A stretch of 64,000 bases of DNA. Origin: a plasmid. Position 1 is the stretch's first letter, and every line of letters starts with the position of its first letter. The stretch lies in sequence record CP128686.1; one strand, given 5' to 3'. Made by a program: the position numbers. Below are positions 51,001 to 57,000 of this stretch, piece after piece.

Positions 51001-54000
51001 CTGGCTGAGGAACTTCACTGCTGCGGAGGCTAATTTGGGCGTAAAAATTACAGGTATAGATAAATTGCAGAAACAATTGAAAGAAGTTGAGGAAGCGGCT
51101 GAAACCCTTAACGGTAGTTATCCGGTAAGTTTTGATGCAAACGATCCTGTCAGCATTGAAACTGCGATTCAGGAAGCGTACAGCATGTTGGAGGAGCGAG
51201 CCTCACGGTATGCCGCTAATCCGATGATTAGTCCCATGATCGAGGCCATGAAAGAGGATTTGCGTCAGCAAATTCTGGATAGTGCCGAACAGCAAAGACA
51301 GGAGAACGGGCAGGATGGCAATTGACATTTTTCAGTCACTCAAAAATTGTGTGTATGATTTGCAGCGTGCTGATGCACAGAACTATCAGCAACCACTGAA
51401 ACAACTGGCCCGGCTCCTGAACGACGGTAATCTACAGGCTGTTAACGAACGCCTGACATGTGATGTCGATCTTGACGCCTTTCTGGCGAAAAGTCATGAA
51501 ACCGAATCCAGTATGGCCGGCTCCGCCATCCTGCAGTGGCCTGAAGAACCGCGTGAAATTTTAGGCCTGAAGCTTTTGTTAATCAGGAAAATGTCCGTTA
51601 ACGATAATTTCGCATTCAATTTTTGCCACACGTTTTTCTATGACCGAAAAATTATTGAATCTGTCCGTAAGTTCACATCCTCGTTACTGGTAACTTTTGT
51701 TCGCGACTACCAGCTGTATGTTGAGAATGAATCCGATCCTGATCCGGTAGTAATACGTCAGGTCTCGCGCAAAATTTTTATTGTTCACGGCCATGATAAT
51801 GATGCCCTTCAGTCTGTTGCCCGCTTTATATCCCGGATAGGGCTGGAGGAAATCATTCTCTCTGAACGTCCTGATGGCTCAAGGACTGTAATCGAGAAAT
51901 TTGAAGCGGAGTCAGGAGATGTCAGCTTTGCCATAGTGCTGATGACACCCGACGACAGTGGAAATGCCCTGGCATCTGAAAACACACGACTGCGTGCACG
52001 CCAGAATGTCCTGTATGAACTGGGATATTTCGCGGGTAAGCTTGGGCGCGGGAAAGTGCTGGTACTAAGGAAGGGAGATATCGAAATACCTTCCGATCTC
52101 GCGGGCGTACTCTATACCGAGCTTGATGAGCATGGTGGATGGAAACGCAAGCTGCTGAGTGAGCTGACGTATGCCGGTGTTCCTTTTGACAAGGAAAAAG
52201 CGTTAAGCGCCTGATCCACTTATTGAGTAATAAAAAGGCCGCCAGGCGGCCTTTTTATCAGATCAGTCGTCATTTCCCAGTGCACTTTTGAGTTCTTCCT
52301 GCTCCGGCGTCAGCTCGTTGCCGGACAGCATAACCTTCAGCTTCTCTTCGACTGCTGACCAGTCATCAAAGAACGGACTGACCTGGTCACGCGCAATCCG
52401 GCGATATGCCCCTCTGTGAGAGCTGAAGACACTGGTCTGTAATCGTATCAACAGGTTAACGAGGCCTTCATCAGTGGCAGTTACTTCTCTGACCCATTGC
52501 TTCACGGCTTCATCTGAACTCATGTCTCTCCAGGCGTAGAGATACCCGAGAATTGACTGGCGCAGGAGAAGTTGTTGCTTAAGTTCTGGCTGACTCATGC
52601 GTTCAGCAAATCTGTCACGCAACCGTTCCGTAATATCGCGACTGAAAAGAGCGTCTGAAGGGGAAGGTACTGCATTTTGAGCAAGACCGTGTTCCCAGAT
52701 AAGATCCCGCATAAAATCGGCTATCCAGAACGGCGAAGCGCCAGTAACAATCAGCTTTTCCATCTGCGTGACTGTTCTGGTCTCATCAATATTCTGCATA
52801 TGCTTCAGCAGATGCCGTACAACCTGATTAATGCCAGTTTCACGCAGGGAAAACCATGTGTTACGGATCCGGAAGCGAGTGCTGACCTCATCCGTGTGAT
52901 CGAAGAAAAACTGAATCAACCCAGCACACTCTTCGAAATTACGTTCCTTAATCAGCCCCGGTGTCAGCCTGCTTAGTATATGTTCGAACCAGGTTCCGGA
53001 CAGACTACCCACACTGTTGATTTTTGAAAGGAGCTTTTCAGAGAGCTGCTGCTGGTTTTCCGGTACGCCTGCCTGCTTAAAAAGCTCATTAAAGAAATCA
53101 GTGGGCAGAACATTCTGGGGTGAGGAGAAGGCATAATAATATCGCCAGTGCGTCAGACTGCTGAGTCGTTTACCGGTCGTCTGGATATGACGAAAATCCT
53201 CACTGACGGGCTCAAAGAGATTCAGATGTGCATCATCATGTCCGCTGATACCGGGGAGCCAGTCTGCAAGCGTCAGAAACGAGTCTGCATTGGATGCCCT
53301 GAACGTCTTCATAGACCTTATAAGCTCCTCCCGGAAGTCTGCCTTTTCTCGGTCAGAAAGCATGCCCTGGCCGGTTTCAATCACGGACCGTTCTGTCAGG
53401 TAATGCTCTGTCCAGTCATACAGGGCCGGGTTTGTCACCCGGATAAGCTGGAGTAGGCACAAATCAGGGAAATACACAAAATCCCGCATCCCCGGATACA
53501 GAAAAATCAGGGAATTAATCGCCTGATGGATCTCCCGTGGCGTCGAAAGTGCGCCACCATACGTATCCGTCACCGCGGCGAGATCCCCTGACATTCCAGA
53601 GTCTGGCGGTTGATTATTAATTTGCTGTTACAGCGCCTCAGCCCGCTGGCGAAATTCATTGCGTAAATCAAAGGCTTCAGGCCGGGGTAATTTAAAACTG
53701 AGCTGAATGATTTTCTGCAGGTAACGGCTGCCATCTTCTATATTCAGCGCATACTCAACGGCATGAGTGATAATCTGCCTGTCATAACAGAGAATATGGG
53801 TAAAGCGGGGCAGATCGGCTACAGCCCTCACCAGTCTGAACACTTCAGCAATCTGGGAAGGTTCAAGTCGATCAAGGTCATCCATAACGACGATGAATTT
53901 CAGATCCAGAGTAACCAGTTGTTTCGCAATTTCAGCCCGCAGTTTTGTTGTCGTTTTTTGATCAACTGCGAGACGACTCTCGGTAAATACTTTTATCCCG

Positions 54001-57000
54001 CCTGCTATCCAGTTAATGATGCTGGAAAACTGCCCGATATACTGAACCAGCGGAAGAACGCGCGATGAAGTATCCTGAGCATACTCAATCACTTTCTGAG
54101 CTTCTGGTGACAACAGATATTTACGCCAGAACTTTTTGAAGCCCTTCGGAGGATAGCGTTTTTCCATTTCCTGCTGAATAACCGTGGCAACAGGAAGAAA
54201 GAGCGCTTCAACCGGATCACTGCCACTCAGCCATGGGGAAACATGCAGTACATGCGTGTGTCCATCCTTGTGCTGAAAAAGACTTTTCAGTATCAGATTC
54301 AGAAGGCTTGTTTTACCTGAGCCCCATGCTCCTTCAATTCCGATCACATTTGAAGCTTCCTGTGGAAGGGAAAGAATGGATCGGGAGATATTTTCTGCAA
54401 TATTTCTGAAGCCATATCGATCCTCAGGTACATTCTCAACTGCCGCATCAAGCCCTTTCTGGTTCCACAGTTGCCTCAGTATTTTCATATTACAGATCTC
54501 CGTAAAGGCCGCGCAGCCCGGTCAGGGCCTCCGCCAGCGTACCTTCCGCACATCGCGTGGTAAGCTCCCGGACCAGCGTCTCAAAGGCCTCCGCCGGTAA
54601 AAAAATCCGCAGGCCGTCGATACCGAAAAATCCCTCTTTTGATACATGCCCGGGCGGGGAGAACATCACACGCGCCCCTTGGTGACCGTGCGCCAGGGCT
54701 TCCGGATGGCGGGAATACAGCGTGAACAGGCCCAGCAGTTCGTAGAACGCCTCCCAGCCGTACGGCACCACGAAGTCCTGGCCGGTGATCAGCAGGTGCA
54801 GACGGGGCGTGGTGTACCAGGCCCCCGGGCGTTCTCCGGGGGGCTGGCCGTCAATGCGGATATCAAGGCGCAGGGTGCCGGCCCCGATGGTTTCCGTTAC
54901 GGCAGAAATAACCGGGCGCAGCTCCTGCGCCAGAGCGGTGGCCTTCTGTTCTGTCCAGCCCAGCCCGCGCAGGACCAGAGGGAATATGGTCTTCAGCCGC
55001 GGCAGGGTGAAAATTTCAGACAGGTTAGCGTCGGGAATGTCAGCCAGCTCAAAACAGTCGCTCTCCAGCGGACGCAAAAGATGCTCGGCATACATCTGAT
55101 CCACGACCGGGCGCAGCGCTGCCCGGAACCGGTCAAACTCTTCCATCCAGTTTTCGCCGGCCAGGCGGAAGATCCCCTTCAGGTAGTGGTCATCCACCGG
55201 ACGGTCATGCTCCACCTGCCAGGCCAGCAGGTCACGGGTGATGTCGAGCAGCGTGCCCAGGGCCGGCAGGGTTGCCAGCCTGTTATGCCCGCGCAGGAAG
55301 GCCTCCCTGGTATGAACCAGCATAAAGCGCAGCTCGTCGCGGGAGAGCACTGACGTGCCGAAGGTCTGGCCGAGAATGATATGCCGGTACACAAAGCGTT
55401 ATTGTCGTCTCAGCACAATTCACACGCGTCGTGTACGCTAAGCCTTCATTTTGCTCAGCACAGGACCGCGATCTTATGTTGGTGACTATGACAGACAAAG
55501 AACTCAGTCGGATCAACATCATTCAGTCAGTTATTGAAAAGCGCATGCGTCGTCGCGATGCTGCTCATCAGCTTGCTTTGACCGAATGTCAGACACAGCG
55601 TTTGATTGATGATCAGCACTACAGTGAGTCCATAAAACGGTCGTTTTATGGAGACTGACAATTAATTGCGAAACCATTAACTAGGTAATGGAAGTTGAGT
55701 GGTGTATTTTATTTCCTCCATGGAAAAACTGGATGTTACATCACTCAATCCGCTTACTGAGCTGACCAGCTTTTTGTAAAAACTATCGTAACCCTTCATA
55801 TCTGAAACCACTACCTGAAGAAGATAATCATATTCTCCCGTGGTACGGAAAAAAGTCATCACTTCTGGCATACTATTGACCTGCGAAACGAAATGTTTAT
55901 ACCAGTCATGGCTGTGGTTTTGTGTTTTTATCATCACGAAGGCTGTAAGCGACAAGTTAAGCTTATCCTTACTCAACAGAGCAACCCGACCAGTGATGAT
56001 CCCCTCATCTTCAAGACGTTTTATGCGCTTCCAGCAAGGATTCGGCGTTAAATCGACAGCCGCTGCCAGGTCCTGTAGACACAGTGTACAGTCATGTTGT
56101 AACAGCCTGAGCAGCTCCTTATCTTTCTTATCCAGCATAACCGCCCCTTCTGATGGAGAATATTTTTCTCTAAAAGTATAAAATAAAAGTGAAGAAAACA
56201 ATATTTTTCTCCCGTTAAAAAGTTAAATTAATTTCTTTTACTGGGAGTATCTTATGCGCAGAGTGACGATATTGGTATTATTCCTGCTGGTTTCACTGAC
56301 CTGGGGGACCACATGGCTGGCTATGCGGATAGCCGCTGAAACTATCCCTCCGGTGTTTGCAACCGGGATGAGGTTTATGTTTGCAGCTCCATTCTTAATC
56401 GGCATTGCATGGTTAAGAAAAACACCGCTTTTATTTCCACGCGGACAACGCTTGTTCCAGCTTGTAATTTGTATTTTTTATTTTGCCATTCCTTTCTCAT
56501 TAATGATTTATGGTGAAACATATGTCAGCTCCGGGCTTGCCTCCATTATATTTTCAAACATGCCTGTGGCTGTTTTGATTGCATCAGTTTTGTTTTTGAA
56601 TGAAAAAACAAACTCAATGCAGATTGCGGGTTTAACTATCGCAATAGTGGCACTGGCGGGCATTCTTCTCGAAGAAACGAAAACAAGCACAGAGACCCAA
56701 TGGCAGGGAATCATTGCGCTTGTTTCAGCCGTAATCATCCATGCCATAATATATACTCAATGCAAGAAAAGAAGCTGTGCTGTCTCTGTTATAACGTTTA
56801 ATGCGCTCCCGTGCTTTCTGGCAGGATTGTTACTTTCTGCGGCAGGATGGTTCTTCGAAAGACCACTGGTGTCAGCCTTCTCAGCACACTCAATATTAGC
56901 TACCCTGTATCTCGGTGCTTTTGCCGGGGTTTTTGGGATATTGTGCTACTTTGCACTTCAGCAAAAGGCCAGTGCCTTTCAGGCTTCACTTGTATTCCTT

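Follow-up and report, generated by a model that had tools for sequence, protein, structure and literature searches.

The pif ('phage inhibition by F') system of the F plasmid has been known since the 1970s–80s, and F PifA is the founding member of the KAP P-loop NTPase family. The family takes its name from Kidins220/ARMS and PifA (PMC13001434, PMC13552941). In the F literature, pifC encodes a 362-amino-acid (aa) autorepressor to which the 741-aa pifA is translationally coupled. PifA is a membrane-associated KAP NTPase that excludes phage T7 (abortive infection); it is activated by T7 gp1.2 and the capsid protein gp10, with membrane leakage and loss of ATP as the outcome (PMC8594841, PMC9311878, PMC13001434). 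PifC, the regulatory gene product of the operon, inhibits IncP and IncW conjugation via coupling proteins (PMC5696584). Here we analysed a 64,000-nucleotide (nt) stretch of a plasmid (sequence record CP128686.1; hereafter the window), in which a sequence-only reading had described a KAP-family NTPase gene interrupted by an in-frame TAA and paired with a GC-rich 300-aa protein. The locus is very probably a decaying pifC–pifA operon, carried by a pLVPK-like hypervirulence plasmid of Klebsiella pneumoniae, in which an older rearrangement truncated pifC and a younger nonsense mutation interrupts pifA.

The pifC–pifA operon and its homologues

Listing of open reading frames (ORFs) revealed three consecutive ones on the minus strand, at 54490..55392, 53628..54488 and 52263..53594. 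Read as one frame, 52263..54488 comprises 742 codons with a single internal stop, the TAA at codon 287, and the pifA ORF begins 1 nt past the stop codon of the 300-aa ORF (TAAtATG), a spacing that is identical in F. The ORF structure reported earlier was recovered in every respect: the three frames, the single in-frame TAA and the TAAtATG junction. Translation placed the Walker A (GAWGSGKTSLL) and Walker B (VVMDDLDR) motifs in the 286-aa ORF.

A megablast search with the 3,130-bp region returned matches in 1,271 PLSDB plasmids, chiefly of Klebsiella, Escherichia and Salmonella, and in 446 complete E. coli records; the matching records are annotated with a 'transcriptional repressor PifC' and a 'KAP family P-loop NTPase fold protein'. 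The F plasmid (NC_002483) carries the 362-aa pifC at 44672–45760, the 741-aa P-loop protein at 42445–44670 and, beside pifA, a convergent pair consisting of a 96-aa ORF and a TIR-domain protein. By blastn, the block at 50909..55391 is collinear with F 41090..45573 in one high-scoring segment pair (HSP; 4,495 columns, 86.0% identity), and the extent of homology to plasmid pMCR1-PA is the same as that to F. The reconstructed pifA aligned with F pifA without gaps over 2,226 nt (90% nucleotide identity; 91% aa identity over 741 residues). The PADLOC PifA model (720 positions) matched the 286-aa ORF at 2–272 (E=1.2e-120) and the 443-aa ORF at 286–718 (E=7.9e-159), far beyond chance, and Pfam KAP_NTPase (PF07693) matched residues 27–281 of the 286-aa ORF at model positions 1–239 of 293 (E=3e-40). 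A PDB sequence search with PifA found nothing. The wider window is that of a pLVPK-like hypervirulence plasmid, with rmpA2, iucABCD-iutA and ter, and is 99.994% identical over 31.7 kb to an annotated plasmid that carries the same TAA allele. The pairing, for which the sequence-only reading knew no described system, is therefore the textbook pif operon of F (PMC8594841, PMC5696584), because the block is collinear with F and PifA is the namesake of the KAP family. The system is already known, and both alleles discussed below already have public database entries, the annotation of which is essentially correct.

The two genes differ in composition, with a GC content of 63.0% in the 300-aa ORF (76% at third codon positions) and 48.7% in pifA, against a window mean of 49.4%. 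F has the same contrast (pifC 63.1%, pifA 48.4%). The idea that the whole unit is a GC-rich island of separate horizontal origin was abandoned accordingly, as only pifC is GC-rich and pifA lies at the window mean. Because the contrast is also present in F, the two genes of the pif operon seem to have differing compositional histories and to form an old mosaic.

The pifA nonsense codon and the truncated pifC

Alignment with homologous loci revealed that codon 287 is a sense codon, TAT (Tyr), in F, in the Klebsiella-type plasmid pKP2648-VirV and in the E. coli-type pMCR1-PA, whose pifA is 1 nt apart from that of F. The window and pKP2648-VirV differ by a single base in 10,484 aligned bp, the T>A of codon 287, which is also the sole difference between them within the 3,130-bp region. 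Exact 61-mers centred on the site occurred in PLSDB with TAA in 33 records and with TAT in 540 (approximately 6% and 94% of 573), the TAT group including the reference plasmids pLVPK and pK2044. The 33 TAA carriers stem from many unrelated submissions and several countries, span K. pneumoniae, K. variicola and E. coli transconjugants, and include large hybrid conjugative plasmids; their unrelated origins indicate that the allele is real and circulating rather than an assembly error. In RefSeq, one 2,226-nt coding sequence (CDS; WP_004215174.1) stands for the TAT allele and two CDSs stand for the TAA allele, a 286-aa KAP protein and a 443-aa hypothetical protein. The Pfam KAP_NTPase match to the intact allele covers residues 27–331, and the stop falls inside this domain, at model position ~240 of 293, so that it truncates the NTPase domain and removes the 410-residue C-terminal region. 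Klebsiella-type and F-type pifA differ by 135 synonymous and 64 non-synonymous codons, a mostly synonymous pattern that indicates purifying selection on pifA until recently. Judged by its sequence, pifA of the window is a pseudogene, a young nonsense allele that represents the minority and derived state: the uninterrupted frame of ~741 codons is absent from it, and homologues encode a single protein, not two with a stop at this position. The sequence-only reading was thus right to see one KAP NTPase gene of about this length split by a nonsense codon, as the gapless collinearity with F PifA and the TAT of the relatives show, and to consider a recent inactivation, given that F has TAT, as has a plasmid with no other difference over 10.5 kb; its further suggestion of a read-through or recoding candidate fails on the 33 TAA versus 540 TAT records, in which the stop is not conserved.

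The 300-aa ORF, previously an 'unknown partner', corresponds to residues 63–362 of F PifC, with 256 of 300 positions identical (85%) and no gaps by BLASTP; 219 PifC homologues were found, nearly all 362 aa long and named PifC. That it has no recognisable motif held for the Pfam, NCBIfam, PADLOC and PHROGs profile libraries, none of which gave a match, but not for direct homology, which names it PifC. A PDB sequence search with PifC likewise found nothing, its N-terminal 63 aa matching only designed repeat proteins (spurious). RefSeq lists the gene as 'transcriptional repressor PifC, incomplete, missing N-terminus', that is, as a pseudogene. At the DNA level, full-length pifC is matched as far as window ~55391–55394 (F 45573, inside pifC), and the first 62 pifC codons, together with the F sequence upstream of pifC, are replaced by a left-end remnant of an ISNCY-family element. 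Support for the remnant comes from an NCBIfam match to the ISNCY transposase N-terminus (E=0.0015) and from blastn matches of 82–94% identity to annotated ISNCY transposases, starting at query base 1. The outermost ~10 nt of the element are missing, and the pifC joint therefore lies ~10 nt inside the insertion sequence (IS) end, which points to a secondary deletion scar and not to a clean insertion boundary; no second copy of the element was found in the window. The GTG 'start' of the truncated gene (pifC′) is evidently an artefact created at this rearrangement joint, and the lost residues 1–62 might have formed a putative Arc-type ribbon-helix-helix (RHH) DNA-binding module (QLNLRF...SVNALAERF). 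Because the truncation is shared by the TAT-allele pKP2648-VirV and the annotated TAA-allele plasmid, it predates the nonsense mutation.

In F, the pif promoter/operator would be expected just before pifC; this part of F had no blastn HSP anywhere in the 64-kb window, and a search of the minus strand of 52000..56400 gave no sigma-70-like site. Upstream of pifC′ lies a minus-strand gene for an Lrp/AsnC-family regulator, just 3′ of which is a hairpin with a perfect 10-bp stem (CCATAAAACG..CGTTTTATGG) and no T-run (minimum free energy of the 91-nt context, -19.9 kcal/mol; z=-2.3). With the promoter region gone, any transcription of pifC′–pifA would be read-through from the Lrp/AsnC gene past this hairpin, which may limit it.

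A probable loss of function and its alternatives

These observations are best accounted for by two successive lesions. The older would be a rearrangement that fused pifC, from codon 63 onwards, to the ISNCY left end less its outermost ~10 nt and removed the putative DNA-binding N-terminus of PifC along with the expected pif promoter/operator; it is common to the Klebsiella-type copies examined (the window, pKP2648-VirV and the annotated TAA-allele plasmid), in all of which the repressor gene and the native promoter are lost. The younger would be the single T>A that turned pifA codon 287 from TAT into TAA, inside the NTPase domain. PifC′ would be unable to repress, because its DNA-binding end and the operator have both been lost. 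The 286-aa product, which stops short within the KAP domain and has no 410-aa C-terminal region, is predicted to be unable to exclude phage. Codons 288–741 of pifA would go untranslated or at most be reached by reinitiation at the ATG at 53594, and the 443-aa ORF is probably not a separate gene. The pif module of the window would consequently be inactive on both counts, PifC′ and PifA. Insertions of IS903B, IS100 or IS5 have independently interrupted the locus in other copies, which fits with a gene pair that is often lost.

Several points weigh against this account. The assignment of the PifC N-terminus to a DNA-binding fold draws on two weak matches, one to Pfam DUF6364 (E=8e-4, below the family threshold) and one by BLASTP to an Arc repressor sequence (E=3e-4); an AlphaFold2 model of full-length PifC, computed from a shallow alignment of 25 sequences at 77–100% identity, had a mean pLDDT of 57, with the N-terminal 54 residues below 50. 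The pifC′ frame is uninterrupted for 300 codons, which is weak evidence at 63% GC. An in-frame ATG 11 codons past the pifA stop could reinitiate translation and yield a 443-aa C-terminal polypeptide. Finally, the null state of the TAA allele is a prediction from sequence, and the intact Klebsiella-type pifA, deprived of its native promoter, may not be expressed.

One alternative, which we consider unlikely, holds that the promoter-less pifC′–pifA has been kept in the hypervirulence plasmid lineage, owes its expression to read-through from the Lrp/AsnC gene and has a dual role, the TAA being a selected loss of PifA. PifA would then exclude T7-like (Autographiviridae) Klebsiella phages and the RHH-less PifC′ would constitutively inhibit the coupling proteins of rival plasmids; on this reading the TAA sublineage would be one rich in large hybrid conjugative plasmids, and the loss of PifA would alter the sensitivity of the strains to therapeutic T7-like phages. 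In our judgement very unlikely is a group of readings in which PifA works as a functional split protein (286 aa plus a reinitiated 443 aa), or in which loss of PifA or retention of RHH-less PifC′ is adaptive, for example by relieving PifA toxicity or by keeping the PifC inhibition of rival plasmids' fertility. A split protein could draw on the ATG just mentioned, but this lacks a properly spaced Shine–Dalgarno sequence (CTCTGGAATG), the break lies inside the KAP_NTPase domain and not at a domain boundary, and the truncated operon has no promoter-like site. In favour of these readings are the spread of the allele to 33 plasmids, among them the large hybrid conjugative ones, the problems that another study met with ectopic pifA constructs (PMC8594841), the more than 570 plasmids in which the 300 codons of pifC′ are uninterrupted, and the second, protein-targeting function of PifC (PMC5696584); hitch-hiking on a successful plasmid can explain that spread as well.

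A sequencing or assembly error, with pifA intact in the source plasmid, is highly improbable: the sequence is only one base off the common allele, but the identical TAA 61-mer recurs across unrelated submissions, and a substitution, as opposed to a homopolymer indel, is atypical of long-read error. Programmed read-through or recoding, in which the TAA would be decoded as sense, perhaps under regulation, and full-length PifA would be made, is almost certainly wrong. It has two supports: the downstream frame is open over 454 codons, with the sequence of the functional allele, and TAA persists in 33 plasmids. Against it stand the TAT of F, of every other lineage examined and of 540 among 573 near-identical plasmids, the absence of an evident recoding signal around the stop, and the fact that no stop codon of Enterobacteria is terminated more efficiently than UAA, which RF1 and RF2 both recognise. 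An open downstream frame is expected at this age, when a single mutation, the one difference in 10.5 kb, has occurred.

The locus itself has little discovery value, being a known system whose pseudogenised state is known too, in a plasmid family that is well studied. Automated defence-system finders may nevertheless score it as 'PifA' or as a KAP NTPase with a hypothetical protein, whereas the TAA allele is a pseudogene. The intact allele is present on ~94% of these plasmids, and T7-like phages figure prominently among the candidates for phage therapy of Klebsiella.

Neighbourhood and known systems

The features of the locus and its surroundings are collected in Table 1. Outside the pif operon, a 96-aa ORF and a 299-aa protein form a pair that sits beside pifA in pKP2648-VirV, pMCR1-PA, F and the annotated TAA-allele plasmid. 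The 299-aa protein has a CAP12/Pycsar-type TIR domain (Pfam PF10137, E=6.4e-37; PADLOC candidate system PDC-S35, E=7.6e-66) and is 87% identical to its F-plasmid orthologue; the 96-aa ORF had no family match. As the same pair adjoins pifA in F, F itself seems to have an uncharacterised candidate defence gene with a TIR domain next to pif. Among the papers searched, none was found on PDC-S35 or on PifA of Klebsiella virulence plasmids.

Table 1 Features of the pif locus and its neighbourhood in the window
Feature	Position	Strand	Description
pifC′	54490..55392	−	300 aa, GTG start; 5′-truncated pifC, equivalent to F PifC residues 63–362
pifA codons 1–286	53631..54488	−	N-terminal part of the KAP P-loop NTPase domain
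pifA nonsense codon 287	53628..53630	−	TAA from TAT (Tyr); one T>A on the coding strand
pifA codons 288–741 and native stop	52263..53627	−	Rest of the KAP domain (to ~residue 331) and C-terminal region
443-aa ORF	52263..53594	−	Opens at ATG 53594, within the 3′ part of pifA
F-derived block	50909..55391	both	96-aa/TIR pair on +, pifC′–pifA on −
ISNCY-family (ISKpn21-like) left-end remnant	55393..55606	+	~95-nt leader and first ~40–48 transposase codons
96-aa ORF	51035..51325	+	Overlaps the TIR gene by 11 nt; convergent with pifA
299-aa TIR protein	51315..52214	+	Overlaps the 96-aa ORF by 11 nt; convergent with pifA
Hairpin	55629..55652		Just 3′ of the Lrp/AsnC gene
Lrp/AsnC-family regulator	55677..56201	−	Upstream of pifC′
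DUF3800 protein and 97-aa ORF	49045..50487	+	377 aa (PF12686), then 15 nt, then 97 aa (phrog_8351)
AT-rich segment	45500..47000		GC 0.26–0.32

Position 50909 is both the left edge of F homology and the point at which pKP2648-VirV switches to GGDEF, HNH and sil genes, a coincidence which marks it as a recombination joint reused in plasmid mosaics. Between the F-derived block and a vapBC toxin–antitoxin pair lies the DUF3800/97-aa pair, which may be another small accessory or defence-like module. The very AT-rich segment contains rmpA2, as located by coordinate mapping to the annotated TAA-allele plasmid; this gene regulates the mucoid phenotype of hypervirulent Klebsiella.

The locus was also compared with described systems. 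Membership in Qat (QatA), PADLOC PDC-S20 or AbiO was considered and rejected: they share the KAP P-loop fold, but their matches are weak (E=1e-16 to 1e-5), approximately 100 orders of magnitude weaker than that to PifA, and the window has no Qat partner genes. F PifC shares with pifC′ residues 63–362 at 85% identity, the position directly upstream of pifA and the 63% GC content; it differs in retaining residues 1–62 and the upstream control region, where the window has the ISNCY remnant instead. F PifA is orthologous over 741 codons; the two copies agree in their Walker A and B motifs, in the 1 nt between pifC and pifA and in having the 96-aa and TIR genes as convergent neighbours, whereas in the window codon 287, which follows 286 residues from the native start, is TAA in place of the TAT of F, the replicon is a Klebsiella hypervirulence plasmid and the native pif promoter/operator region is absent. 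The intact Klebsiella-type allele (WP_004215174.1; pLVPK, pK2044, pKP2648-VirV) has the truncated pifC′ and the neighbouring genes in common with the window over 10,484 bp, and differs from it by one base, being TAT where the window has TAA.

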